Of a DNA stretch of 64,000 nt, positions 1 through 60,342 are shown in pieces. Positions within the stretch are counted from its first letter, which is position 1; every line of letters starts with the position of its first letter. The notes below the pieces were generated by a model. That model was not told the DNA's origin and did not search any database. It saw nothing but the letters and a program-made list of their open reading frames with translations. Source of the DNA: Escherichia coli O157 typing phage 4. Made by a program: the position numbers and the translations under genes. The stretch is taken from the sequence record KP869102; one strand, 5' to 3'.

Positions 1-499
1 TGGTTATTTCAGCCTTAATTCCCTGAAGATCCTCAAAAGCCCCAATGTCTGTTTCAACAAACCTTACGTTAAATGTCAGCATCACAGTGGCTCTATTTTC
101 ATACGTCTGCTTATTCAACGGCACTCTTTGAGGTGAGATTGTTGAATTGTTAGAGTAGGCAAAGCACGATCCCAGAGGGAAATACTTGTCATAAAACATT
201 GGAAGGTTTATTGCTTGCAATACTCTGCTAAGTGCAGCATATGCCCTGCCACGATAAGCTGTTAACAGATAAGTAACAGTGTAACTGTGGGTGACGTAAG
301 CATTACCCTCCGCATCTTGAAACTCATTATCTTCCCAAGTGGTGGGATTGATCGCCAAGGTTTGTAAAAGTACAAACTCACCTTCCGGCTTCGGTATGGT
401 AGAGCTTTCTGCCAGAACTACAGTTCTTCCTGTGGCAACCTTGACGAGCTTAGCAATGGTTGTTTCAAGATCAGAAAAAACTTTTTCGAAAGCTTCCAT
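1..499 (-). CDS. virion structural protein, partial (3-prime end lies beyond window start)
   Basis: Stop-free minus-strand frame from ATG at 499 to window edge; start overlaps upstream stop (TGATG); downstream of head genes. Confidence 0.45.
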   Translation of the reverse strand, partial: MEAFEKVFSDLETTIAKLVKVATGRTVVLAESSTIPKPEGEFVLLQTLAINPTTWEDNEFQDAEGNAYVTHSYTVTYLLTAYRGRAYAALSRVLQAINLPMFYDKYFPLGSCFAYSNNSTISPQRVPLNKQTYENRATVMLTFNVRFVETDIGAFEDLQGIKAEIT

Positions 500-924
500 C
501 AGTTTTCTCCTTCAGGCTCTTCTACCACAAAAAATCTATATCTCCCACCACCAGAGGTAACATATGCATCGCATTTTAAAACAGTAAACCATTTCAAGTC
601 ACCACGGATGTCAGGCAGCTGAATTTGGTCAGCCATTGCATATGTTCCTTCGTCCGGACTATACAACTTGGTTGAGGAGTAAACTGTAAAAGCCTCGTAC
701 TGTCTGTCACCTTCAGGGTTTATTTGAGAGGAGTAATCTTTAGCTGCCCTTCCTGTCAACGGCTGCACAACACAATCTAAGACATCAAACTCTTCATACT
801 CAAGTTCTAACCCCTCGTTGGCAAAAGGGCCACCAACTGTTTTGTTATACACTCTGTGGCGACCTTTGAATGTTTTACGAGGTATTAGTCTGTTCTTTCC
901 TATCAGCTTATAACCTGCTGCCAC
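499..924 (-). CDS. hypothetical virion/head-tail joining protein
   Basis: 141-aa ORF co-oriented with and downstream of capsid genes. Confidence 0.45.
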   Translation of the reverse strand: MAAGYKLIGKNRLIPRKTFKGRHRVYNKTVGGPFANEGLELEYEEFDVLDCVVQPLTGRAAKDYSSQINPEGDRQYEAFTVYSSTKLYSPDEGTYAMADQIQLPDIRGDLKWFTVLKCDAYVTSGGGRYRFFVVEEPEGEN

Positions 925-940
925 TCAACCCCCTTATTTT

Positions 941-1411
941 TTACTGTCCGATTTTAAAGGTTGCAGATTCAAGCAGCACATCGTAATGCCGCATAGCCTC
1001 GTTGAAGCCTTTCTCTTGTGCCCACTGCTCGCTAACAGTAGGATTACTAAACTGCCCAGCCTCAATAACAAACTGGATAGCTTTGGCCCCTGTGTCCCCC
1101 ATCTGCTTAAGAATAGCCTCTGCACTTGATCCCCTAGCCATAGCTCTCAACAATTTTTCTGTCAAGGTCTGTAGTTGAGTGCTGTGAAATGCAAAAGCTG
1201 TCTCCATGAAATTGCGAACAGGCAGCCCGTTCCAACCGAAGTTGTGAATGGCTGCCAATGTTGCCATATTTAAGCCTGACGGGTGAGGTTCGTCATAAAA
1301 GCCGTAGGTTATTGTTTTACTTTCAAGTCTCACAAGTTCTTTGTAGAAGCGATCTAAACGCTTTAGGTTGAAACTTGTTTGACATTTAACCTTTAGCATT
1401 ATATTCCTCAC
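941..1411 (-). CDS. hypothetical virion protein
   Basis: 156-aa ORF in structural gene string. Confidence 0.45.
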   Translation of the reverse strand: MRNIMLKVKCQTSFNLKRLDRFYKELVRLESKTITYGFYDEPHPSGLNMATLAAIHNFGWNGLPVRNFMETAFAFHSTQLQTLTEKLLRAMARGSSAEAILKQMGDTGAKAIQFVIEAGQFSNPTVSEQWAQEKGFNEAMRHYDVLLESATFKIGQ

Positions 1412-1452: not shown

Positions 1453-2073
1453 TTAAAAACTGCGTTTGCGTCTTGGGTGGCGAGGAGGTTGATTATTTAG
1501 ACCACTGATAGGTGTAATCCCCTGAACATCGAACGGTCCGTTACTGTTTTCATTAAATTTAACCCGAATTCCTTCGTCTACACGAACACCACCAATGATA
1601 ATCATTCTGCTATAAGCATCTAGCTCAGAGTCTACATAATCTGGGTGTGCCAGCAGCCAATCAAGAAAATCTTTCCACTGAGCGTAGGAAGATCCACCAC
1701 GAATCTCTATGGTCTCATCACCTATTTTTTCCAGACGAGAAGTTATACTTGCATTACCACTGGAAACTTCCTGCATCATCAGCCACCGCACAAGCTGCAC
1801 AAGCACATTGTACTTAAGCAGGGGTAGCTTATCAGGGTCTGCCGGATAATTTAGTTTCAGCTTCTCCATGTCAAGGAATGTTTTAATTACCCCATCAGGG
1901 AGTGTTTCCTCATCAACATTTCCAAGCAATAACCTCATAATATCAATAAGAGGTTGGTCTGGATCAGGTTCTGGGGGCACAGGATCTTCTTTTGGTGGTT
2001 CTTCTGGGGTATCGACTACACCATCATGGTTAGGCGGTGACGGGATAATCTCTTCATCTTCATACCATGCCAT
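1453..2073 (-). CDS. hypothetical virion protein (Pro/Glu-rich N-terminus)
   Basis: ORF trimmed to internal ATG (MAWYEDEE) with GAGG RBS; track ORF 1453..2130. Confidence 0.4.
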   Translation of the reverse strand: MAWYEDEEIIPSPPNHDGVVDTPEEPPKEDPVPPEPDPDQPLIDIMRLLLGNVDEETLPDGVIKTFLDMEKLKLNYPADPDKLPLLKYNVLVQLVRWLMMQEVSSGNASITSRLEKIGDETIEIRGGSSYAQWKDFLDWLLAHPDYVDSELDAYSRMIIIGGVRVDEGIRVKFNENSNGPFDVQGITPISGLNNQPPRHPRRKRSF

Positions 2074-2132
2074 TTGAAAATACCTCGTAAAAATAAAGCC
2101 CCATTCCTGATTTGGAAGGGGCCTTAACAAAA

Positions 2133-2987
2133 TTATGCCAGTGCAGCCTCAAAATCTTTCATCATATTTTGGAAAGTTTTTGCCTTACTTAAGGTAACAC
2201 CGTGCTCTTTAGCGAAGGTTTGGAGTGCATCTTTCGAACCACTTTTGTCATCTTCGTTGTTAAGAGCTGAGGCTTGCTGTAGTATGGCATCAATATCATT
2301 ACCGGAAGATCTTGATTCTTGTGCCTGTTCAGGATCCTGCTTAGTTCCTTCCGTACCATCCGGTGCGGTAGGGCCTGGTGATTCCTCACTGCCACCACCA
2401 GGTTCAGTAGGACCTACAGGTGGCTCCGGCTCTGGTTCAGGTTCTGGGGCTACTGTAGAAGTCAGCCCAAGATTTACAACCTGAGAACGTTTCTTAGGCC
2501 ACTCAATGGTGAAAGTCTGGGTATCTTCTGCATAAGCAACATCGCATTGCTCATCGTTTATGGTCACTTTTTTGGGCATCCCTTCAGGGTCCCACAGATG
2601 ACCTTCTGCTACGGAAACCTTGAAAGCAGCATCTACCTCTTTAAACACCGAAGGAGTGAGTGTAATATTGACATCACCGCTTTGAAGTGTTAAAGTGCTT
2701 TCATCAAGATTTTCTGTGAAGAACAGAAGAATAACACCCATACGGATGGTTGAAATGCCTGTATCAATTGGCAGGCCTGTGTGTTTTGCAATCTTCTCGA
2801 AGAAGTCTACAATCGTTCTGCATGGATAGTGAACACTTCCAATAACGAACTCTGTTGGTGGAAGCAGGGCTGATAAACCAACATTGATTTCTGGATTGTA
2901 TTGTGCTAAAAATTGATAAAAACTTAACTGATTGTTGAAAACTCTTAATAGAGGATCATACTCGACTGGATATACGGCTCTCTTCAC
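2133..2987 (-). CDS. virion structural protein with PEPEPEPEP linker
   Basis: 284-aa ORF directly downstream of major capsid gene; two domains joined by Pro-Glu repeat. Confidence 0.5.
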   Translation of the reverse strand: MKRAVYPVEYDPLLRVFNNQLSFYQFLAQYNPEINVGLSALLPPTEFVIGSVHYPCRTIVDFFEKIAKHTGLPIDTGISTIRMGVILLFFTENLDESTLTLQSGDVNITLTPSVFKEVDAAFKVSVAEGHLWDPEGMPKKVTINDEQCDVAYAEDTQTFTIEWPKKRSQVVNLGLTSTVAPEPEPEPEPPVGPTEPGGGSEESPGPTAPDGTEGTKQDPEQAQESRSSGNDIDAILQQASALNNEDDKSGSKDALQTFAKEHGVTLSKAKTFQNMMKDFEAALA

Positions 2988-3068
2988 GGGACACTCCTGT
3001 TAAACCCTAATAAATAAAAAAGGGGAGGGGAGAACCCCCTCCCCATATGGGATGAATCACATTAGTGA

Positions 3069-4091
3069 TTATTCACTTTTCAGAGTTACTTTAACAACCA
3101 GCTCTGGGCGGGTGTTAACTGCCAGCATGGAAGTTTCAGATTCGATTTTCTGTTCTCTCAGGTAGGCAGAGTGTTTATACCACATATACAGCTCTTGAGC
3201 TGGGGTATTTGCATCTTCCAGAGTGTCAGCCGGAGCAAAGTGCAGCTGGAACATCTGATCGATACCCATAGGCATCAGACGAGCCTCACCGTCCGGAATG
3301 TTGCCAGAGATGTCTTCGATGAAGGTCATACCCTTGTGTTCAAACACACGGTAAATGCTCTGTTCACCACCTGCACCCAGACGACGACGCAGCGGTTCCT
3401 GAGAAGAGCTGTAGTAGGTGTAAGCCAGCTCTACCAGCGGGTGATGAACCAGTGCTGAGAAGAATTTCGGAGAGCACAGCGCGATGATGTTATAAGCACC
3501 AGCGTTGTCACCAGCCTGCAGAGCAATGTGCAGACGTGCATCTTCGATTACTTCCATCGGGTCCTGTGCTGCATTTTTAGGATCGATTTCGATAGATTTC
3601 TGGGAAACGCCCCACAGTTTGTAATAGTCATACTGACAGGTGGTGTCGCCAGGGGCATATGATTTACCCAGAACTGCAGCAAACAGCGCTTTTTCACGCA
3701 GAGTTTCGTGGGTCAGACGGATACGACGAACCACACGGGTAACTACGTCCTGAACAGTTTTCGGTGCATCAGGGGTGAAGTAGCGACGGAAGTTCTGAAC
3801 ATCCGCAGCGGTGATGCCTTTATCCAGCGGGAAGAACGGGATGTTCAGGTTTTTGATCTGAGCACGTTCGCTACCAACGTAGTTACGTTCACCACCACGG
3901 CGACGTGCAGCAATATCACCAACCACTTCATCTACACGTTCAATCTGTGCGATTGTTGAGGTGCCTAGATGAGTTTCAAACAGATCCATACCAGTGATCA
4001 GTCGGAATTGGCGCGGAACCAGTTCAAGAGTAGCACCTAAATCAACAATACCAAAATCATCTTTACGGGTGTTAGCCATTATTTTCTCCAA
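3069..4091 (-). CDS. major capsid protein
   Basis: 340-aa ORF at the lambda gpE position (portal-scaffold-decoration-capsid order); GC-richer codon usage than surroundings. Confidence 0.75.
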   Translation of the reverse strand: MEKIMANTRKDDFGIVDLGATLELVPRQFRLITGMDLFETHLGTSTIAQIERVDEVVGDIAARRRGGERNYVGSERAQIKNLNIPFFPLDKGITAADVQNFRRYFTPDAPKTVQDVVTRVVRRIRLTHETLREKALFAAVLGKSYAPGDTTCQYDYYKLWGVSQKSIEIDPKNAAQDPMEVIEDARLHIALQAGDNAGAYNIIALCSPKFFSALVHHPLVELAYTYYSSSQEPLRRRLGAGGEQSIYRVFEHKGMTFIEDISGNIPDGEARLMPMGIDQMFQLHFAPADTLEDANTPAQELYMWYKHSAYLREQKIESETSMLAVNTRPELVVKVTLKSE

Positions 4092-4521: not shown

Positions 4522-5502
4522 TTATTTATTGGATTCTTTACGTGCGCGAGCCAGAGCTTTAGCGACGTTTTCAGCAATAATGTCTTCAGCAGATTTAGCA
4601 ATGTCGTCCACCACGACATCACCATCTTTACCTTGCTCTGTGGTTGCGAACTCTTCTTTAGCTTTTTCAACTTTAGCTTCCAGTTCAGCAATACGAGCTT
4701 GAGCTTTTTCCAGCAATTCAACAACAGGGGCGTTAGCTTTATCCAGCATGAATTCGACCAGAGGTGCGTGGTCTTCTTCAGTGGTGAAGCTTAACGCCTG
4801 AGCTTTTTCCAGCATTTTAGCTTTTTCAACTTCTACCTGAGCCTTGATGATTTCTTCAGCTTTTTCATTGGTAGCTTTCAGTTCTTCGAACTGTTTCAGC
4901 AGGTCCAGGTACTCTTGAGACTTGGTTACGTCTTCCACCGGATTCTCCTCGGTATTTGCGGATTTATCAACATTGTCCACAGCGTCTGTAACAACTTCTT
5001 CTGTGGTTTCCTGTGCCGCTTTAATAAGTTTCCCTTCTTCATCGAAGAGATCAGCGGTCATCTGCTCAAAAACTTGTTGGGTTTTCAACAGAGTGTATTG
5101 GTCAACAATACTTAAATCTTTACCTTCTTTAGCAGCTTTGTGAATGGTTACGTTATCACAACGTTCTTCTAACCACTGCACACAAGCCTCTGCATCAGCC
5201 TGTGCCCACTCCCAATCTGGGTGTTCTTTTGCCCAAGCTTCTTCCTCAATCTCGAACCCAAGCAGGTGAGCCAGTGCCTTAGCATCGTCATACCACATAT
5301 CGAAAAAACGACGCAGGTATTCTTCAAAGCTAAGTTCAACAGTAACTTGGCGAAGAGCCTTAACGATATCCTCTGTTAACTGCTCGGGCTTAAGATCGCT
5401 CTTCATTAAAAGAGATACAGGCCTATTGTTAGCGCTATAGCCTTGCGCCTTGTGGCACAGGGCAATCCCTTTCTCTTTAATAGTGATTGTTTTTTCAGAC
5501 AT
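4522..5502 (-). CDS. putative capsid scaffolding protein
   Basis: 326-aa acidic, coiled-coil-rich protein (AELEAKVEKAKEE) upstream of capsid gene. Confidence 0.5.
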   Translation of the reverse strand: MSEKTITIKEKGIALCHKAQGYSANNRPVSLLMKSDLKPEQLTEDIVKALRQVTVELSFEEYLRRFFDMWYDDAKALAHLLGFEIEEEAWAKEHPDWEWAQADAEACVQWLEERCDNVTIHKAAKEGKDLSIVDQYTLLKTQQVFEQMTADLFDEEGKLIKAAQETTEEVVTDAVDNVDKSANTEENPVEDVTKSQEYLDLLKQFEELKATNEKAEEIIKAQVEVEKAKMLEKAQALSFTTEEDHAPLVEFMLDKANAPVVELLEKAQARIAELEAKVEKAKEEFATTEQGKDGDVVVDDIAKSAEDIIAENVAKALARARKESNK

Positions 5503-5933
5503 TACTCATTGCCCTCTTCTACAACACTGATCCCGAAGTTTACGTTGGTGATCTCGCCAGTTTCTTCATCAACATTGCCAGTTGCCTGAATGCTTAGTCC
5601 ACCAACAATGCCAGCCTTCTTAGCTTCCCATAATTCAGGATTGTTGTATTTAACTTTAGCAACCCAAGAGCCAGCCTTGATGACCTGCTCAGTACCAATT
5701 ACCACAACATCAAACTCTTCTTGAATCCACGTCTTTTCAATAGTGAATGCATCTGTGGAGGTCAAGTGGAAAAGGTTTTCAGAAACTAGGCCTGCGGCGT
5801 ATGCTGCGTCCCAATTATCTTTAGCCTTTTTGATGGTGTCTTTACTCATCCACTCACCGTGAGCGTCTTTAGTGTCCGGTTCGTAGATGATTTCGTAGGA
5901 AATCATTTCTTCCTGTGGCATCTTATTCCCCAT
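5502..5933 (-). CDS. hypothetical head morphogenesis protein (protease position)
   Basis: ORF between portal and scaffold; trimmed to internal ATG to avoid portal overlap. Confidence 0.3.
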   Translation of the reverse strand: MGNKMPQEEMISYEIIYEPDTKDAHGEWMSKDTIKKAKDNWDAAYAAGLVSENLFHLTSTDAFTIEKTWIQEEFDVVVIGTEQVIKAGSWVAKVKYNNPELWEAKKAGIVGGLSIQATGNVDEETGEITNVNFGISVVEEGNE

Positions 5934-5988
5934 GTGGATTATTTTATCACGCCAAAGGAGGTTTTGCAACCCCCTGTGTTGATAATTT

Positions 5989-7545
5989 TTAATTTTCCAT
6001 GTTGGATATGGAATTATCTCTGGTTGATGACATCTTAGAAGTGCCGTTGCCAGTGGATCCTGCAGCCATACCATCACCAGCCCTGCTGATATCCTGGCCC
6101 AAGAGCTTCATCAGCTCTTCTTGATCCATGTCTTCGTCAAATCTTTCATCAAACCCGCCTACTTCAAGAATCTTATTAATTACTGCAGGAGTTTTTGGCA
6201 AGTAACCTACAGCACCGATCCTCTGGACAAACTTGGAGAAGCTCTCCATGTCCACTTCTTCAATCAGACCAGGTTTCAGTTTAGGCATATCATCATCTTC
6301 AAGGATGATACCATTCAATGCCAGAAGCTGTGGAATAAGATCCTTATTGAAGGCTTCAGTGATAATATCTATATCACGCTGAACAAAATGACCATGGATA
6401 GACTGTTTTGACTCAGACAGAGAGAAGGATCCAACGTTATCGTTACCGAGGTTAATAAAGCCAGCACCGAAACGGTCAAGAATCGCCTTCTTACGGGCAT
6501 CGATCAAATCTTTAGTGGAATATTGCTTACCCATACCGTCAACCCCCTTCAGGGTCATGGAGTAAAGCTCTTTACCAGACTTATCTCTATCAGACGGAAG
6601 TATAAAGAAACTTTGCTCACCACTATGGGCGTTTGCTGCGTCAAGCATAAGGTCTGCAACCATTCTCCCTTCCATTGAATTCGGGTCAATACTGGCCTTG
6701 TTCAAAATATTGGAAGGAATTTTCAGCTCAAGCACCCCACCAAGGTCTTTGGAACAGCCAACAACCTCAAGGTTTTCAATCAGAACTTTCTCACGGAAAG
6801 ATCTGTAGCAACCTATCATCGGTGACACACCTGCAGGGTTAGATTCTGTTCCTGACAGGGTCATGAGCATAAGCTTTTTAGCAGGGATGAAAATTTCAGG
6901 CTCATTAAAGCCTTTTGAAGGCATTGCAGCAAGAGGTCCAGCCCAGCGTGCATTCTGAGTGTTTAGAAATGCATTAGGTGACTGATAAATACCTGTCAGT
7001 GTTCTACTATTCTTGTCAAAGACAAACGGCTCTGATCTGGACAAACTGGCCTGAGGTCGGAATGCAATTTTATCAATAAGAAGCATCCCGGCATATTTAC
7101 CTTCTTTCTCTCTGCGGTATACTTTCTCAAACAGTGAAAAACCATACTCGTTAAAGGTAGCTGCGCTTCTTGCAATATCCCGAAGGGTTTGTTGGTTTGC
7201 CAAATTACGCAAAGAATACTCTATAAGCTCGGCAGCTTTCTTAGAGTCTTCACTTTTAACATTATAAAGGATCTTAAAATCATTGAATGCTTTCGTGATG
7301 AAAACATATTTTGTATCTAAGGCAGTAGCAACTGTGGAATCACATTTCATAGTCTCCACTGTGGCAATCAGCTGAGGCCAACGCAATTCCTCAACCATCA
7401 TAGATTGCGATTCTGCCATAATTTGGGAAAGTGCGCCAGAACCGATCTCACTCATACGAACATTATGAGTTGGTGCGCCTGCGTTCCCAGATTTATTCAC
7501 AGTTTTGGCTGTGGCGTTGTGTTTCCTGCGGTTCTTTTTGGACAC
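5989..7545 (-). CDS. portal protein
   Basis: 518-aa ORF immediately downstream of terminase large subunit; size and synteny. Confidence 0.65.
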   Translation of the reverse strand: MSKKNRRKHNATAKTVNKSGNAGAPTHNVRMSEIGSGALSQIMAESQSMMVEELRWPQLIATVETMKCDSTVATALDTKYVFITKAFNDFKILYNVKSEDSKKAAELIEYSLRNLANQQTLRDIARSAATFNEYGFSLFEKVYRREKEGKYAGMLLIDKIAFRPQASLSRSEPFVFDKNSRTLTGIYQSPNAFLNTQNARWAGPLAAMPSKGFNEPEIFIPAKKLMLMTLSGTESNPAGVSPMIGCYRSFREKVLIENLEVVGCSKDLGGVLELKIPSNILNKASIDPNSMEGRMVADLMLDAANAHSGEQSFFILPSDRDKSGKELYSMTLKGVDGMGKQYSTKDLIDARKKAILDRFGAGFINLGNDNVGSFSLSESKQSIHGHFVQRDIDIITEAFNKDLIPQLLALNGIILEDDDMPKLKPGLIEEVDMESFSKFVQRIGAVGYLPKTPAVINKILEVGGFDERFDEDMDQEELMKLLGQDISRAGDGMAAGSTGNGTSKMSSTRDNSISNMEN

Positions 7546-7647
7546 AAGCTTTACCCCTCAAAACAGTATAACAAAATAGCCCTCGTGTTAGAGGGCTAGT
7601 ATCTCCGATTACTCTATTCTACCACATCTAATTAAGATTGGCAACAC

Positions 7648-8736
7648 TTAGATAAAACGCTTGAACATAGAAGGTGATGAGATTGATGGAATCACACAAG
7701 GAAGTGCTACCTCCTCTTTCTCCAGGAAATTAATCGCAGAAGCTACACAGTCGGCCCAGTCGTCTTTCCTGTTAAATGTTGATCTTTCCCCGTTGAATTT
7801 TTCAAGTTCAGTCAGAAATGCTTCCAGAGTATCAGGATGGAAACTGGATTTTACAATCCTAACCATTCCTTGTTGGGCAAGATTGGCAAAAGGTGAGAAC
7901 CTTGTCAGTTTAGATTTGTTGGAAGGCATTGGGTCTTCTTCAACCCTAAACCCTTCGGCGAGCAAGGATCTGGAGGATGTTAAGAACTCACTCTTACCTG
8001 CCTGACCGGGGTCCACAGAGAATACGATTATACAATCATCACCATCAAACTGCGCCTGTTTCCTGATGATCACATCTCGTTCACCAGCCTTTTTACAGAA
8101 CTTGCCTTCCAGACCTGTGGAATACCTCCCGTCATCCACGTTCTCAGGACAATAATCACCGGACAGGTAATAAAAGCCGTCGCTATCTTTACTTACCTTA
8201 ACACTGGCGGTAAAGTCAGGAAATTTATTACCGGAAGTTCTCTCGGTTCCTGCCTTATCCCATGCCCTGCAAGATACTGATCCAAGGGGTACTCTATCGG
8301 CATCACGAAGGAAAGATCTTTGAAAATAGTTTGCACCCTCAGGCTTTGCAAACCAGTTGCCATGAAGAAGCTGGGCTTTTTCAAGCTCGGGCAGACCTTC
8401 AAGAAAAGCAAGGTATTCTGGGTTGTCTCTCAAGCAGACAGGATTATCGAAGATTGTTGCGCCTATAAACGAGAATGACAACGGTCTTGGCTTGATCTCT
8501 ACACCAAGTCCGTTAACCGTGGTGTATTTCTCTATCAACTCTTCCTTAGAGTCTCCCCAAATAAATTCACCGTCGCGTCGGATAAAATATCTTTTCTTAC
8601 CGCATTTCTCCGGATCTGGATACCCTTCATCGTCCAACCACCATCTAACCAGTTTGGCAAGCATGTGTTCTGAATCTGGGTTACAGCTGATAACCATTCT
8701 TGATGGATACTTTGACTGAGATCGCAGACGAGACAT
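7648..8736 (-). CDS. terL: terminase large subunit, C-terminal nuclease part (exon 2 or separately translated half)
   Basis: 362 aa with terminase-like VISCNP segment; continues the Walker A/B-containing ORF at 9650..10078. Confidence 0.75.
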   Translation of the reverse strand: MSRLRSQSKYPSRMVISCNPDSEHMLAKLVRWWLDDEGYPDPEKCGKKRYFIRRDGEFIWGDSKEELIEKYTTVNGLGVEIKPRPLSFSFIGATIFDNPVCLRDNPEYLAFLEGLPELEKAQLLHGNWFAKPEGANYFQRSFLRDADRVPLGSVSCRAWDKAGTERTSGNKFPDFTASVKVSKDSDGFYYLSGDYCPENVDDGRYSTGLEGKFCKKAGERDVIIRKQAQFDGDDCIIVFSVDPGQAGKSEFLTSSRSLLAEGFRVEEDPMPSNKSKLTRFSPFANLAQQGMVRIVKSSFHPDTLEAFLTELEKFNGERSTFNRKDDWADCVASAINFLEKEEVALPCVIPSISSPSMFKRFI

Positions 8737-9649
8737 CAGGTAGTCTATCTGTTCCCATTCGAATTGTGTCGTTTATGTTCAGGCAAGGTCGCTAGTCTTG
8801 CCCCGCCATTTTCAGGCAGCTGCATGTCTCCATGCAGACCAGACTATATCTTATGAATGTGTAAATACTCTGCCGCTCTAAGAATAGTTTCCTCATCTTC
8901 TTGGAAGAAACCTAAAGCTCTGTTGCATTTATCACAAAGCAACCCTCTTACAGCACCAGTTTTATGGTCATGATCAACACAAAAGAAATCTCTGTACCCT
9001 TGCGTCCTATACTCATCGAGAGATATTCTACAAATGGCACACTTATGATCTTGATCTGAGAGTAGACGATAGTATTCATCTTTTGTTATGTGAAATTTCT
9101 TCTCAATCTGATAAAACTTTTCACACATCTTACACCTGTTCGTAACCAGATATACTTTACCATAGTCACGTTTTGTGTAAAAACTATCAGCGAGCATACT
9201 TTCATGACAAGATTTGCATTCAAAAAGTTCACCTTTCTTCAGCAAGTCTTGAATAAATAATGCTGCGTCATCTCTCTTAACCATATTTTTGTTTTTACGA
9301 GATCCACCCTTCCTGTAGTACATATAGCATTCCTTGCATGTACCTGAGTATCCATCCTTGCTCTTAGATGATAAAAAGAAATCATCAATAGGTAGAACTC
9401 TTTGGCAATCCATACATTTTTTAGTATTACACATTCACCCTCCCGTTTCGAATCGCTTGATTCTACGTCTTTCGACTAGTCGTTGAACGTTCATCCTCTC
9501 GGATGCTTCGCTGCGGATTATCTAAACTAACACACTGTTACCATACCTTCGATCTCTCTTCGAAGCCTCTATCATGTTACCATGACAGGTTGGTGGTGTC
9601 AATAATAAAGATTTCCCCGCAATTAGGGAGGTTTTACGAGAGCTACAAA
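8737..9649 (-). mobile_element. intervening sequence in terL: candidate group I intron (or free-standing HEG insertion)
   Basis: ~910 bp between the two terL halves; contains endonuclease ORF flanked by 215-nt and ~107-nt non-coding segments. Confidence 0.6.
8844..9434 (-). CDS. homing endonuclease, endonuclease VII/HNH family
   Basis: Cys-rich N-terminus plus CVDHDHKTGAVRGLLCDKCN motif (Endo VII-type HNH). Confidence 0.75.
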   Translation of the reverse strand: MCNTKKCMDCQRVLPIDDFFLSSKSKDGYSGTCKECYMYYRKGGSRKNKNMVKRDDAALFIQDLLKKGELFECKSCHESMLADSFYTKRDYGKVYLVTNRCKMCEKFYQIEKKFHITKDEYYRLLSDQDHKCAICRISLDEYRTQGYRDFFCVDHDHKTGAVRGLLCDKCNRALGFFQEDEETILRAAEYLHIHKI

Positions 9650-10078
9650 TTAACCCTCATCGAAGCAAACCATGGTGTACTCAAGCCCTTGATGGTTAAG
9701 CTTATCTTGTACATACTCCATGTGGCAGTATTTTACAACAGCTCCCTTTTTGCTTCTATCCCACTTGCCAGTGTTCGGATCAAACCGTGGAAAAATGAAC
9801 TTATGATCCTTCTCTCTGAACTTTGGCTTAATGTTTTCAGGCAGATCGCTATAAATAGCTACTGCTTTAGGCCATAGTCCACCCTCACCTTCCAACTGTG
9901 GGGTTGTTCTTCGGAACATAACCACAGAGCTGTGGGGGTCATCAATAATTTTAAGTGGCATCAACTGCAAGAGAAACGACTTGCCAGACCCTGCGGCACC
10001 GCCGATTACCAAAATATCTGCATCGTTTTCGAGGATCATCTTCTGCTTTTCAGAACACGGTCCGTAAATCTTAGACAT
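9650..10078 (-). CDS. terL: terminase large subunit, N-terminal ATPase part (exon 1)
   Basis: Walker A GGAAGSGKS and Walker B VCFDE; ORF ends at a stop right after Walker B. Confidence 0.8.
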   Translation of the reverse strand: MSKIYGPCSEKQKMILENDADILVIGGAAGSGKSFLLQLMPLKIIDDPHSSVVMFRRTTPQLEGEGGLWPKAVAIYSDLPENIKPKFREKDHKFIFPRFDPNTGKWDRSKKGAVVKYCHMEYVQDKLNHQGLEYTMVCFDEG

Positions 10079-10865: not shown

Positions 10866-11135
10866 TTATCGAGGCACTCGGTGGATGATTCTAACAGTAA
10901 CTGCATTTTCATTCATCAAGTATGCATCTACATCTCTGTAAATATAAAACTTCTGCTCACTATCAACAACACAAGCTACTGCCCCTTCAGAGTTGTCTTC
11001 AAAAAAGACCACCACTGCATCGCAGCTGAGTTCATGATATGACTCTCGAAGATTTACAGCCAGAGGATTGAAATCGTCACGAAAATCTACGGTATGGGTT
11101 GGATTTACACGCTCTACAATTTTAAGTGTATACAT
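10866..11135 (-). CDS. hypothetical protein
   Basis: ORF trimmed to ATG at 11135 (AAAGGA RBS) so it does not overlap tRNA-Pro. Confidence 0.4.
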   Translation of the reverse strand: MYTLKIVERVNPTHTVDFRDDFNPLAVNLRESYHELSCDAVVVFFEDNSEGAVACVVDSEQKFYIYRDVDAYLMNENAVTVRIIHRVPR

Positions 11136-11181
11136 TTTAAAGGTTCCTTTTGTTTGTATATGTTTAAAGTATAACTGAAAG

Positions 11182-11258
11182 TGGTCTCCACGGAGTGATT
11201 CGAACACTCGACCTCCTGATCCCAAATCAGGCGCTCTACCAAGCTGAGCTACGCGGAG
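11182..11258 (-). tRNA. tRNA-Pro (anticodon TGG)
   Basis: Cloverleaf folded by hand: C1-G72 acceptor, T-arm GAGTG-TTCGAAT-CACTC, anticodon loop TTTGGGA, CCA encoded. Confidence 0.75.
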
Positions 11259-11269
11259 TATTCATTATT

Positions 11270-11344
11270 TGGTGGCCCTGGGTGGAATTGAACCACCGTC
11301 TGGCGATTATGAGTCGCTTGCTTGAACCTTCCAGCTACAGGGCC
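11270..11344 (-). tRNA. tRNA-Met/Ile2 (anticodon CAT)
   Basis: Acceptor GGCCCTG/CAGGGCC, T-arm GGTGG-TTCAATT-CCACC, anticodon loop CTCATAA, CCA encoded. Confidence 0.7.
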
Positions 11345-11345
11345 A

Positions 11346-11421
11346 TGGTGCTGATGGCAGGACTTGAACCTGCAACCTATTGATTACAAATCAATTGCAC
11401 TACCAATTGTGCTACATCAGC
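11346..11421 (-). tRNA. tRNA-Thr (anticodon TGT)
   Basis: Perfect acceptor GCTGATG/CATCAGC, T-loop TTCAAGT, anticodon loop TTTGTAA, CCA encoded. Confidence 0.75.
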
Positions 11422-11426
11422 AAAAA

Positions 11427-11517
11427 GGTGCTAGGTGATGGAGTCGAACCACCCGAATCGCAATGATAACAGATTTACAGTCTGCCCCGCTACCCCTACG
11501 GAATTAACTCACCTAAA
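11427..11517 (-). tRNA. tRNA-Tyr-like (anticodon GTA), long variable arm; possibly aberrant
   Basis: Anticodon arm GCAGA-CTGTAAA-TCTGT, T-arm GGTGG-TTCGACT-CCATC, variable hairpin; acceptor stem pairs imperfectly. Confidence 0.45.
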
Positions 11518-11643
11518 TACTAATATTTAAATTCTTTTTAAAATAGCTAGTGTTCTCACCACTAACTATGAGGTATCGGTAAAGTGGTTACCGCCACTTG
11601 CCGAAGATTTACTCTGCTAAAGTAAGCTACATTAAAAAGAACT

Positions 11644-11718
11644 TGGCACCCCGTACTGGACTCGAACCAGTGTCAACGGCTTAGAAGGCCGCTGCTTTAT
11701 CCACTAAGCTAACAGGGC
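11644..11718 (-). tRNA. tRNA-Arg (anticodon TCT)
   Basis: Acceptor with two G-U pairs, T-arm ACTGG-TTCGAGT-CCAGT, anticodon loop CTTCTAA, CCA encoded. Confidence 0.7.
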
Positions 11719-21283: not shown

Positions 21284-21311
21284 GGGAGAACACGTGGAAG
21301 ACGGACGTTTA

Positions 21312-21758
21312 ATGAAGTCTGAACGCAGGCTTATTGTGCAACTGATCCCAGAAACAGCTTGGTATAATAACCTCCGAAACGCTGTGAAGAAGGGTGAGTG
21401 GGATAAGATCCGCAAGAAGTGCTATAGAGAAGCCAACTACACCTGTGAGGTGTGCGGCGGTAAAGGCAGCAAACACCCAGTGGAGTGTCATGAACTTTAC
21501 ACTTTCGAAGAGGGAGTGATCCGGCTTGTCGGACTGATAGCGTTGTGCCCAGATTGTCACACATCGGTGCATCCTGGGTTAGCAAATATCCGTGGAAAGT
21601 ATGCTCAGGCAGTTAATCAGTTGGCTAAGGTGAATAAGATCACCAAAGGTATGGCAGAGGCGTATTACCGAGACTGCTTTGCAGAGTGGCGTGAGCTTAG
21701 TAAAGTTCCAGAATGGAAGACTGACTTTTCGTGGATAGAGGGTTACCTTGATGGCTAA
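21312..21758 (+). CDS. putative HNH-type nuclease
   Basis: CEVCG...ECHELY...CPDCH zinc/HNH-like arrangement; start trimmed to ATG 21312. Confidence 0.45.
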   Translation: MKSERRLIVQLIPETAWYNNLRNAVKKGEWDKIRKKCYREANYTCEVCGGKGSKHPVECHELYTFEEGVIRLVGLIALCPDCHTSVHPGLANIRGKYAQAVNQLAKVNKITKGMAEAYYRDCFAEWRELSKVPEWKTDFSWIEGYLDG

Positions 21759-22041
21759 GAGACCTGTAAAAGAGAAATTTGATAAGACAGCTTTTGTATT
21801 CGATACACCTTTGGACGATATCATCAGAGGTATGCAAGCTTTGTATCGGAAGGCTGAATCGGAGCAGCTGTCAGAATCAGAGCTTTACTGGTTGGGTTGG
21901 TGGGAGCTTAATCTACCTAAAGCTGAAAGATCTGATCTAAAAACCGTTAAAACGTGTGCCCAAGAAAATGCTGCACTTGGAATTTACCACAAAAGAAAAA
22001 GATCAACAAAAAGCTCTCCAAGAAAGACTAAAAAGTCTTGA
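21748..22041 (+). CDS. hypothetical protein
   Basis: 97-aa ORF with basic C-terminus. Confidence 0.35.
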   Translation: MMAKRPVKEKFDKTAFVFDTPLDDIIRGMQALYRKAESEQLSESELYWLGWWELNLPKAERSDLKTVKTCAQENAALGIYHKRKRSTKSSPRKTKKS

Positions 22042-22067
22042 CAAATGAGTCTCTGATCTGATATTAT
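22038..22067 (+). promoter_or_regulatory. sigma70-like promoter
   Basis: TTGACA - 18 nt - TATTAT upstream of gene at 22101. Confidence 0.5.
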
Positions 22068-22100
22068 CAGTTAACTATTTATTAACTAGGAGAACTAGGT

Positions 22101-22409
22101 ATGCTTAAAATTTTCATTGTTGAAGATAAAGATATCGTCCAGTTGTATGCAAATGAGAATCACAAAGGTATGATTCTGAAGAAGGCAAAAAACCTTCATG
22201 AAAACACAATTCAACCGGGCGATGTAATTAAGATCTGTGGTTATATGATACCAGACTCCTTGATGAAAATAACCTACCACTGGGGGTCTAATCCGTTCCT
22301 TTTTGAAAAGTATTGGGATGTTGAGTCACTTATTGCAGAGAGTGATGATGCATTCCATTACAGCATCCAACCATCTTGCAGAATAACTAACAGGAGGGTC
22401 TTTGAGTAG
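22101..22409 (+). CDS. hypothetical protein
   Basis: 102-aa ORF with AGGAG RBS. Confidence 0.4.
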   Translation: MLKIFIVEDKDIVQLYANENHKGMILKKAKNLHENTIQPGDVIKICGYMIPDSLMKITYHWGSNPFLFEKYWDVESLIAESDDAFHYSIQPSCRITNRRVFE

Positions 22410-24499: not shown

Positions 24500-25056
24500 G
24501 AAAGAAAGCTGTCAAAGCACCCGTTCATAACGGGTGGCTAAAAGATTCTAAGGACATAGCCAACTTTCGAAAAGAATTGTCAGAGGAGCAGGATGGTCTT
24601 GATCCGATCTTGTGCGAGCCACTTCGTAAGCCTTGTTTAGATCATGATCATCTGACTGGTCGTTGCAGGGGTGTTTTGTCTCAGTGCACTAATACCTTTG
24701 AGGGGTATGTGCTTAAATACTGGATGAAATACTGTAACGAGTATACAGATTGCAGTTTATCAGAGGCGTTGCGCCGGATGGCTGACTATTTGGAGAAAGA
24801 CTACAGCGACTTCCCGCTCCACAAAAACTACAGAGATGATATGACAAAGTTCTTGAGGAGATGCTCTAAAGCTACGATCATTGCACGAGCAGAATCAGAT
24901 CTCAATCTTGTCATTAATCCAGAGTGCACCAAGCATGAGGCTATTGAGCTCTACATGCAGGAGTTTATAAAGAAAACTGAGGAGAGAGATTTCTATGGGG
25001 ATGAAAAAGGTATTCAATCCTTGCGACTCAGTCCTGATCAGGATGAAATACCGTAA
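24451..25056 (+). CDS. endonuclease VII-family protein
   Basis: CLDHDHLTGRCRGVLSQCTN motif; 49-nt overlap with upstream gene suggests a later non-ATG start. Confidence 0.5.
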   Translation: MDRQGASGGIIAKRKIRKKAVKAPVHNGWLKDSKDIANFRKELSEEQDGLDPILCEPLRKPCLDHDHLTGRCRGVLSQCTNTFEGYVLKYWMKYCNEYTDCSLSEALRRMADYLEKDYSDFPLHKNYRDDMTKFLRRCSKATIIARAESDLNLVINPECTKHEAIELYMQEFIKKTEERDFYGDEKGIQSLRLSPDQDEIP

Positions 25057-36808: not shown

Positions 36809-36925
36809 ATGTCTACAGGTATTTATAAAATTTGCAAGTGTGGTTGTCGTTGCAATCTTCGTTGGTGCAAGGCACTGGACGATTTTATTTGGCATTGCCC
36901 TAAATGTGATGCGGAGTATCTATGA
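36809..36925 (+). CDS. small zinc-ribbon protein (38 aa)
   Basis: AGGAGG RBS 7 nt upstream; CKCGCRC...CPKC; ATGA overlap with nrdG start; too short for the ORF track. Confidence 0.4.
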   Translation: MSTGIYKICKCGCRCNLRWCKALDDFIWHCPKCDAEYL

Positions 36926-57707: not shown

Positions 57708-57907
57708 TTGTCGTCCCCTTTCTTACGGATATAGATGTGAGAACCTGCCTGTATATAAATTTCTCGACCATCTTCTGCGAAGATGTGGAATACACGGTCA
57801 CCTTCGTACTCAATACGAGATATCTTCATAATGGTCTTTCCACCTGGGATACGGATCTCGTCCCCCACAGCGATGTTCCATGCAGATTTAAGCTTAAACA
57901 TCTGCAC
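57704..57907 (-). CDS. hypothetical protein
   Basis: 67 aa, overlapping stop/start. Confidence 0.4.
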   Translation of the reverse strand: MQMFKLKSAWNIAVGDEIRIPGGKTIMKISRIEYEGDRVFHIFAEDGREIYIQAGSHIYIRKKGDDK

Positions 57908-58139
57908 CCTCCTTTGGGAACTTGAACTCTGGCATAGCCATATACGCTACAACAGGGTTGTGATCAAAGTAGAACTGACCGTTAATTATCCCGGTTTTAC
58001 TCACATAGTTACCAGATCCTGCAAGAACAACCTCGCAAGCTCCGAAATCTACATTGCCATCCTCATCAGCCATGGCTACGATATACTTTCCTAGAGGCAT
58101 GTTTTTAACGCCGTCTACAAATGTCCACCCTTTGTTCAT
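57894..58139 (-). CDS. hypothetical protein
   Basis: 81 aa. Confidence 0.4.
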   Translation of the reverse strand: MNKGWTFVDGVKNMPLGKYIVAMADEDGNVDFGACEVVLAGSGNYVSKTGIINGQFYFDHNPVVAYMAMPEFKFPKEGADV

Positions 58140-58159
58140 ACTTTATCTCCTGCACTTTC

Positions 58160-58492
58160 TTAAGGTAACCAGTAAACAATCTCGCCTTTCAGCTTCATGT
58201 CGTTTCCAACATAAATTTCCCAGCCATCCATCTTAGCAACTGTAGGCCCAAAGTCATCCGCACCCCTTACCTCTTTCCAGGCTCCGTAGTCAGGTTGCCA
58301 GATATAGAATCCACCTTCTTTGTCCCATGCTCCGTACACTACGTTTAACAGGTTTCCCATTGCAACAATGGTGGGCCGTGGGAATAATACATCTACAGAT
58401 GCGCCACAATTTCGGGTATCTTTTAAGTTGCAATCCCAAAAGATGTCTGCCAGTGTGGCGGCGATAGCTTTACGTCTTTCCAATGTTACCAT
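58160..58492 (-). CDS. hypothetical protein
   Basis: 110 aa. Confidence 0.4.
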   Translation of the reverse strand: MVTLERRKAIAATLADIFWDCNLKDTRNCGASVDVLFPRPTIVAMGNLLNVVYGAWDKEGGFYIWQPDYGAWKEVRGADDFGPTVAKMDGWEIYVGNDMKLKGEIVYWLP

Positions 58493-58502
58493 GGCACGAT
58501 AC

Positions 58503-58694
58503 TCACTTGTTGTTAATAAGTTCTAAAACTTTCTGTCTTACTTTGTCAAGGTCTGTTGATTCAAAAACTGTGCGATATCCCCAACTTTGCCCATAGGAGT
58601 GACTGCAATCTCCGTAGCACCATTGCTCAATTTGATAGTATTCAAGGAAGGGGTGCTGTCTAACTATGATGCCATCCCGGTTAAAAATTACCAT
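58503..58694 (-). CDS. hypothetical protein
   Basis: 63 aa. Confidence 0.35.
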   Translation of the reverse strand: MVIFNRDGIIVRQHPFLEYYQIEQWCYGDCSHSYGQSWGYRTVFESTDLDKVRQKVLELINNK

Positions 58695-58757
58695 AATACG
58701 TCGCTCTCTGTTAGTCTGTGCGTATATTATACACTGTAGTTTTCAGATGTCAATCTT

Positions 58758-59009
58758 TTACAGGTTACTCCAGTATACTCGGCATTTACATTTCGGGCAA
58801 TGAGGCTCTTTTATGTAATAACCATCAGTCTTTGGAACACTTTTTGGTGCAGTTTTAAGATTGTACCGAGTAAAACACCGGAAGCAGGTTACCTCTCCAA
58901 CCTGTTGATCGTTTATCCACTCGCCAGAGTAAAGCTCTCTCTTGTTTCTCATAATTCTCTCCCAAATCCTCTGCAATCTTATACCAAAATCTCCAGCCAG
59001 AAAGCACAC
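58758..59009 (-). CDS. zinc-ribbon protein
   Basis: CFRCFTRYNL...HCPKCKC Cys pairs. Confidence 0.4.
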   Translation of the reverse strand: MCFLAGDFGIRLQRIWERIMRNKRELYSGEWINDQQVGEVTCFRCFTRYNLKTAPKSVPKTDGYYIKEPHCPKCKCRVYWSNL

Positions 59010-59760: not shown

Positions 59761-60076
59761 TTGGGAGATAGAAATCTGTTACCTCGTAGAATCCACAATC
59801 GTCGCACTCGCCTTCTTCAAACTTGGCCTCAACCTTAATACCGAGGAAGGTGAAAAGTTTATGAATATCTTCAGTTTCGAACTCCCAGTGAATGTTGTTT
59901 TCCGCATCGGTGTAGAACTGGATCAGCAGACCATTGTCCAGTTTACCAAAATACTCTGTGAAGTAACTTCCTTCCCAGAAATCTCTATGACAAATAATAT
60001 CCATGCGTTTGCCCATAATAATGGTGTGAGCGTTTTGGGCATCGTCGCGAATCAGTTTTGGCATTTCATAGATCAT
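59651..60076 (-). CDS. hypothetical acidic protein
   Basis: 141-aa ORF; 3-prime end overlaps macro-domain ORF. Confidence 0.4.
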   Translation of the reverse strand: MIYEMPKLIRDDAQNAHTIIMGKRMDIICHRDFWEGSYFTEYFGKLDNGLLIQFYTDAENNIHWEFETEDIHKLFTFLGIKVEAKFEEGECDDCGFYEVTDFYLPSGENLYYESHFGNSNMPQGWDEFFEIAEEELAYRDY

Positions 60077-60144
60077 CTTAGTTCTCCGGGTTCAACAGGT
60101 GGTGGTGCTACAGGAAGATCATAAAACATAGCTATCACAGTCTC

Positions 60145-60342
60145 TTACACAGGAATTGCTTCAAACAGGCCGTTATCTATACCGTCCTTCAGATAGAGAT
60201 TATATTCTATATCGGTATCTGTATAAAGGGCAGCATCCAGCATTCTATCTGTGAGTCCATCCATTGGGTGGAGAAACCACCACCCACGCCAGTCAAAGTA
60301 ACAGCCTGGTGCATCTTCTCTTACACGGATTCGATAAATCAT
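60145..60342 (-). CDS. hypothetical protein (gene A; second copy starts at 61334)
   Basis: 65 aa; identical N-terminus seen again at 61285-61334. Confidence 0.4.
   Translation of the reverse strand: MIYRIRVREDAPGCYFDWRGWWFLHPMDGLTDRMLDAALYTDTDIEYNLYLKDGIDNGLFEAIPV

Follow-up and report, generated by a model that had tools for sequence, protein, structure and literature searches.

How is a complete large terminase subunit made from a gene whose coding sequence is distributed over two open reading frames (ORFs) with an endonuclease gene between them? The question is raised by the terL locus of Escherichia coli O157 typing phage 4 (record KP869102), located at positions 7,648 to 10,078 of a stretch of 64,000 nucleotides (nt) that is referred to as the window in the following. 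In this region there is 100% identity with the rV5-like Vequintavirus Escherichia phage JES2013 (KC690136/NC_022323), and window positions are converted into coordinates of the JES2013 record by adding 50144. The minus strand, on which all parts of the locus discussed here are situated, carries three consecutive ORFs of 142, 196 and 362 amino acids (aa). A preliminary description had offered two alternatives for the interruption, a self-splicing group I intron on the one hand and, on the other, a free-standing endonuclease that has split terL into two separately translated polypeptides. The former is borne out by a ribozyme core, by the features of the splice sites and by the existence of intronless as well as ORF-less alleles, and the latter is not. 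We consider it very probable that terL is a single gene into which a mobile group I intron bearing an endonuclease gene has been inserted, with splicing predicted from sequence features.

Judged by their domain content, both terL ORFs are parts of one protein. The 142-aa ORF (10078..9650) contains the Walker A motif GAAGSGKS (10000..9977) and the Walker B motif MVCFDE (9673..9656), has a glycine codon as its last codon and ends with TAA (9652..9650) directly after Walker B, just as originally described. Taken alone, it matches positions 2-104 of the Pfam Terminase_6N profile (E 1e-5), and the 362-aa ORF (8736..7648) matches positions 117-211 of the same profile (E 2e-6) plus Terminase_6C. The joined protein yields one Terminase_6N match spanning profile positions 2-211 with a far better E-value of 6e-20 and a Terminase_6C match at 2.6e-6, which places the ATPase and the nuclease domain in a single predicted spliced polypeptide and argues against two unrelated proteins. 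The proposed division into an ATPase half and a nuclease half has to be modified in one respect: the two ORFs do belong to one terL, but the interruption falls within the ATPase domain, directly past Walker B, and not between ATPase and nuclease, so that the remaining part of the former is found, along with the latter, in the downstream ORF. As already noticed in the preliminary description, the downstream reading frame already contains 12 open codons (TTQFEWEQIDYL) ahead of its ATG at 8736. The 11 codons that precede this ATG are conserved, differences among relatives being synonymous only, and no Shine-Dalgarno sequence was found before it.

The splice sites were first predicted from the sequence, the 5' site after GGU (U9653) and the 3' site after G8770. 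The resulting spliced ORF would comprise 1548 nt and read ...MVCFDEG|TQFEWEQIDYLMSRLRS... over the junction. In the sister phages MaxTheCat and FV3 terL is uninterrupted, exactly 1548 nt long, and encodes identical residues at this place (DEG|TQF). Alignment against such uninterrupted homologs had been put forward as a means of locating the insertion; when the intronless terL genes of both phages are compared with the window by BLAST, two blocks (1-425 and 427-1548) are obtained, which sets the insertion at exactly 9652..8770, that is 883 nt. Exon 1 (10078..9653, boundary from the alignment to both sister genes) thereby consists of 142 codons, the last being GGT with U9653 as the 5' splice-site U. 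The intron (9652..8770) opens with an in-frame UAA, such that the TAA ending the 142-aa ORF represents its first three bases, and closes with the terminal G at 8770. Exon 2 (8769..7648) has 373 codons plus stop. It begins with ACA CAA TTC (TQF...), 33 nt ahead of the ATG at 8736, and encodes the RNaseH-like nuclease domain as well as what remains of the ATPase domain. The non-coding flanks of the endonuclease ORF had been given correctly as 215 nt (9649..9435) and 107 nt (8843..8737); in the latter, 74 nt (8843..8770) belong to the intron itself. Exact removal of the intron restores the terL reading frame with the length and junction found in MaxTheCat and FV3, the predicted ligated sequence being ...GATGAGGGT|ACACAATTC... 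and the junction peptide ...CFDEGTQFEWEQ..., which spans CFDEG-TQFEWEQ. The exons are free of frameshifts and share about 97-99% nucleotide identity with intronless terL, and it is the existence of intronless alleles at this level of identity that fixes the junction. At the site itself, intron-bearing alleles read GGT|ACA CAA (CAG in HdK5) and intronless alleles GGC ACG CAG, all differences being synonymous. Position -1 is U in the former and C in the latter, and this U is the base required by the P1 helix. The remaining synonymous differences may reflect co-conversion or immunity to the endonuclease.

A covariance-model search for a group I core, likewise suggested at the outset, returned a full-length match to Rfam RF00028 (window 9662..8820, model positions 1-253, 46.5 bits, E 2e-10, corresponding to E 1e-8 for the whole window). 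The core blocks AAUUGCGGGGAAA, UAAUCCGCAGC, GUUCAACGACUA and AAGAUAUAGUC are all aligned to the model, and the core elements AAUUGCGGG, UAAUCCGCAGC, GUUCAACGACUA and AAGAUAUAGUC are aligned to its consensus in the window and in ORF-less alleles of the intron alike. The 5' part of the predicted catalytic core (9631..9439) comprises P3 (9631..9626 with 9444..9439, 6/6 paired), P4 (9621..9616 with 9517..9512, 6/6 paired), P5 with an extended P5a/b arm (9611..9521, 4/6 pairs in P5), P6/P6a (9511..9487), the 5' strand of P7 (GACUA, 9481..9477), P7.1 (GUC-GAAA-GAC, 9476..9467) and P7.2 (GAAUC-AAGC-GAUUC, 9463..9450), with P6/P6a, P7.1 and P7.2 assigned by a check of complementarity. The 3' part (8846..8770) is made up of the 3' strand of P7 (UAGUC, 8846..8842, 5/5 paired), P9 (8837..8820), P9.1 (8819..8803), P9.2 (8802..8782) and the tail UGAACAUAAACG, whose terminal G at 8770 stands directly before the first exon-2 base set by the intronless alleles. 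P8 is a stem of 10 base pairs (bp) formed by GAAUGUGUAA (9436..9427) and UUACACAUUC (8864..8855), 10/10 paired, with most of the endonuclease ORF in its loop. All helices from P3 to P9, including the P3/P7 pseudoknot, are fully complementary with the exception of P5, and a minimum free energy (MFE) fold of the ORF-trimmed intron recovers the model helices unaided (-116.9 kcal/mol). Five variable pairs in P5a/b all remain paired among five copies, one of them by a compensatory double change from C-G to U-A in rV5. The two additional helices that separate P7 from the 3' strand of P3, P7.1 and P7.2, are a signature of subgroup IA, and on its predicted helices the intron would be classed as IA-like. 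Additional UUCA/UGAA pairs appearing in an MFE fold of the isolated 3' piece were rejected as spurious, as they are broken in relatives. The P6-P7 core also has BLAST matches at unannotated sites in Bacillus and Staphylococcus phages.

The elements expected at the splice sites can be located as well. P1 (9658..9638) would form between exon GAGGGU plus intron UA (9658..9651) and the internal guide UAGCUCUC (9645..9638), 8/8 paired, and includes the U·G pair of U9653 with G9643 at the 5' splice site. P10 may form between UGU (9647..9645) and exon-2 ACA (8769..8767), 3/3 paired. In the transcript, exon 1, intron and exon 2 would follow each other in this order and the intron RNA would adopt the group I core fold, upon which exogenous guanosine would attack after U9653, held in the U·G pair of P1. 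The 3'-OH of exon 1, once freed, would attack after the terminal G8770, and ligation of the exons would give a TerL protein of 515 aa (...MVCFDEG-TQFEWEQIDYLMSRLRS...). Ribosomes on unspliced RNA would be halted by the intron-initial UAA. The endonuclease, for its part, most likely cuts intronless terL of co-infecting relatives, and repair would copy the intron in (homing).

The distribution of the element among relatives was counted by records, such that the numbers include GenBank/RefSeq duplicates. About 119 phage records carry the terL junction region, some 52 of which contain the 5' half of the intron (at least 95% identity) and 29 the endonuclease ORF. Three states of the site exist, empty (~67), occupied by an ORF-less intron (~23) and occupied by the intron with endonuclease (~29), and the exons are about 97-99% identical throughout. 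In the 29 records with endonuclease, the same arrangement is found at 95-100% identity. The ORF-less allele of 319 nt resides at the identical site, with the same in-frame UAA, in rV5, JohannBauhin and other isolated phages. Such an insert with an in-frame stop in a packaging gene of isolated phages would be tolerable only if spliced out. ORF-less and ORF-bearing introns have the same sequence except for P8, where the whole segment is replaced by the short hairpin UAAGCGAUUGUUGUCGCUUA in the former; the endonuclease form therefore differs by replacement of the entire P8 hairpin and not by an insertion into the hairpin loop. Among the records surveyed, 18 (MG0656xx) are labelled 'Campylobacter phage' with Campylobacter jejuni as host, are 97-99% identical to E. 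coli Vequintavirus terL and in several cases bear the same intron and endonuclease; these host labels look doubtful.

The ORF inside the intron (9434..8844, 196 aa, 591 nt), a candidate homing endonuclease, had been described as EndoVII/HNH-like, and this assignment is confirmed by a match to Pfam PF02945 (Endonuclease_7) at 2e-21 and 76 bits (cut-off 23.6). Endonuclease VII families of PHROG are matched also, phrog_1035 covering residues 3-195, and in the PDB Hpy99I (1e-5) and T4 endonuclease VII (6e-4) are aligned over DHDHKTG...CDKCN. At the N-terminus the protein has two CxxC...CxxC modules, at the C-terminus an EndoVII-type His-Me finger (VDHDHKTG...CDKCN), and its profile matches assign it to the His-Me finger nucleases of the EndoVII/Hpy99I type (HNH-like). 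Since the PHROG alignments begin at residue 3, they support the long ORF with its start at 9434 over the shorter call in the JES2013 record. Copies with at least 95% identity occur only in 29 Vequintavirus records; all others are below 60%, and many of these are annotated as endonuclease VII in unrelated phages. The gene is closely interwoven with the ribozyme. The 3' strand of P3 doubles as the Shine-Dalgarno sequence of the gene, GGGAGG (9444..9439), the AUG is part of the 5' strand of the P8 stem, and the stop codon UAG is located in the conserved AAGAUAUAGUC, where it overlaps the beginning of the 3' strand of P7. Because ribosome-binding site and start codon are contained in P3 and P8, ribozyme folding probably limits translation of the endonuclease. 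A possible, though rather doubtful, extension of these observations is that endonuclease and P8 move as one module between ribozyme backbones by recombination at conserved core sequences, with translation gated by ribozyme folding. If true, this would provide a tractable E. coli system for the cycle of endonuclease gain and loss.

Three other explanations of the locus have to be weighed against an intron that splices. A free-standing homing endonuclease might have inserted into terL, leaving polypeptides of 142 and 362 aa that are separately translated and reassemble without RNA splicing. The JES2013 record does annotate two separate terL coding sequences (CDSs), an ATG is available at 8736, and a precedent exists in T4-like phages, in which genes split by free-standing endonucleases are known. 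Nevertheless, we regard this explanation as very unlikely: a free-standing endonuclease cannot explain the ORF-less insertion at the identical site, and a complete group I core is present together with the proper features at the splice sites. Furthermore, the ATG at 8736 lacks a Shine-Dalgarno sequence, its use would forfeit the 11 conserved codons upstream, and the break would fall in the middle of the ATPase fold, directly after Walker B. The endonuclease could also be a partner of terminase in DNA packaging, as in HK97-like phages, rather than a selfish homing enzyme. HNH proteins encoded next to terminase genes can promote packaging (Kala et al., 2014, as cited in PMC7344957), but about 90 of the 119 close relatives lack the ORF (~67 intronless, ~23 ORF-less), many of them isolated and propagated phages, such that it appears dispensable. 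Both its location within a loop of the ribozyme and its sporadic occurrence are those of a homing endonuclease, and a packaging role is extremely unlikely here. An intein or a group II intron was ruled out, as the insert opens with stop codons in every frame and matches the group I core.

Finally, terL might be a pseudogene containing a decayed relic of an intron that no longer splices, or the arrangement might be an assembly artefact, and the Rfam score of the intron in the window does fall slightly short of the gathering score. We assign next to no probability to this, because JES2013 is an isolated and propagated phage, the identical arrangement recurs in 29 independent records, all core helices are intact, and the exons retain an undamaged reading frame at the identity to intronless terL given above. 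Some observations nevertheless weigh against an actively splicing, mobile intron. The window score is 3.5 bits under the RF00028 gathering score of 50 bits; this arises because the model pays for the P8 insertion of 0.56 kb, and the ORF-less allele scores 84.9 bits in rV5 and 84.3 bits in JohannBauhin, above gathering. Support from covariation is thin, the available copies being at least 96% identical, P10 has just 3 bp and P2 is absent. The differences between GGC ACG CAG and GGT ACA CAA could render intronless alleles uncleavable by the endonuclease.

Classical cases of phage group I introns with endonuclease genes are T4 td, nrdB and nrdD as well as the introns of SPO1 and Twort. The terL intron resembles them in its core elements, in an endonuclease ORF looped out from a peripheral helix and in an insertion at a highly conserved catalytic motif. 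It differs from them in its host gene, in an EndoVII-like His-Me endonuclease as opposed to the GIY-YIG enzyme of td, and in the absence of P2.

In close relatives the element has already been described and annotated. The publication on the rV5 genome (Kropinski et al., 2013, PMC3606486) devotes a section, 'Introns in terminase', to the subject and expresses thanks to D. Shub for the definition of the intron, and in the rV5 record (DQ832317) the terL CDS, ORF64ABC, is joined from three pieces. Gene and insertion site (after GAT GAG GGT) are the same in rV5, and the ribozyme backbone is nearly identical outside P8; the intron at this site, however, is the ORF-less form of 319 nt with the short P8 hairpin. 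A second intron of 982 nt with a different HNH gene follows after about nt 740 of the uninterrupted CDS in rV5 and is absent from the window. This second insertion occupies 1782..2763 in rV5 (our sequence L004) and 2346..3327 in HdK5 (our sequence L003); its matches to RF00028 in rV5 are weak (35.2 bits, E 5e-7). In the window, the equivalent site at about 8455 on the minus strand, between nt 740 and 744 of the uninterrupted CDS, is unoccupied. HdK5 carries both the 982-nt insertion and the 883-nt intron. The same 883-nt intron with its 591-nt ORF is present at 98-99% identity in the BASEL Vequintaviruses DrSchubert, HeinrichReichert, WalterGehring and MaxBurger (Maffei et al., 2021, PMC8594841), and these records, for example that of DrSchubert, annotate terL as a two-piece joined CDS together with a 'putative homing endonuclease'. 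The BASEL phages and the window are separated by few point differences, whereas the JES2013 record has no join and a shorter endonuclease ORF. For LL12, too, terL has been reported to be disrupted by an intron (PMC6658697).

Outside the genus, splicing of an HNH-bearing terL intron has been established by reverse transcription polymerase chain reaction and sequencing for Pectobacterium phage CB7 (Certrevirus, Vequintavirinae; PMC7344957). That intron is likewise group I-like (Rfam E 5e-7), contains an HNH ORF and is inserted into terL at Walker B. Nevertheless it is a different intron with a different 5' start, located 6 nt upstream between D and E of Walker B (385..1340 of our sequence L008). 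Almost the same spot in terL of the Vequintavirinae is therefore targeted by two different introns. As the one earlier case of a phage terL gene with a group I intron, PMC3606486 cites Lactobacillus phage LL-H (Mikkonen and Alatossava, 1995), a siphovirus that is unrelated and infects a Gram-positive host.

Some further features of the window deserve mention. An Rfam scan of all 64 kb at the E-value level revealed no other introns and, besides the terL intron, four tRNAs. The tRNA genes (Pro-TGG, Met-CAT, Thr-TGT and Arg-TCT) occupy 11182..11718, and the spanin and terL genes follow downstream of them. ORF68, a 'hypothetical protein' (10866..11225, minus strand), overlaps the 3' part of tRNA-Pro (11182..11258, minus strand), has no Pfam match and is probably a spurious gene call. 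A seemingly split nrdD (ORF107 plus the tiny ORF108) was discarded as a second candidate for an interrupted gene, since NrdD is complete up to and including its C-terminal RRVSGY motif and ORF108 (36809..36925, plus strand), which encodes a Cys-rich protein of 38 aa between nrdD and nrdG, lacks a Pfam match, such that its annotation as 'ribonucleotide reductase' is probably wrong. The small ORFs labelled 'HNH/transposase/endonuclease' at 21294..22409 and 24778..25056 gave no Pfam matches. Between terL and the portal start at 7545, a hairpin resembling an intrinsic terminator is present on the minus strand (7573..7597, AGCCCUC uaacac GAGGGCU followed by AUUUUGUU), and terminators are annotated in the matching gap between terL and portal in the records of rV5 and HdK5. 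An overlap of 86 nt (5989..6074, minus strand) exists between the portal-like ORF62 (518 aa, GTG start at 7545) and the downstream ORF61, annotated as 'DNA methyltransferase' (5502..6074); the start of ORF61 may be miscalled.

The sole new outcome of the present analysis is a corrected annotation of JES2013. Its record, and no other, lists two separate CDSs for 'terminase large subunit', ORF65 and ORF63; an 'endonuclease VII' is annotated as well. ORF65 and ORF63 should be replaced by one joined terL CDS (window 10078..9653 plus 8769..7648, corresponding to 60222..59797 plus 58913..57792 in the record), and the start of the endonuclease should be placed at window position 9434 and not at 9323. 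The locus represents a further case of a mobile group I intron at a catalytic motif, here Walker B, of an essential phage gene. Such a placement is already established for the rV5-like phages and others, and no new principle emerges. The three-state polymorphism of the terL site could, however, serve as a convenient E. coli model of the gain and loss of introns and their endonucleases.

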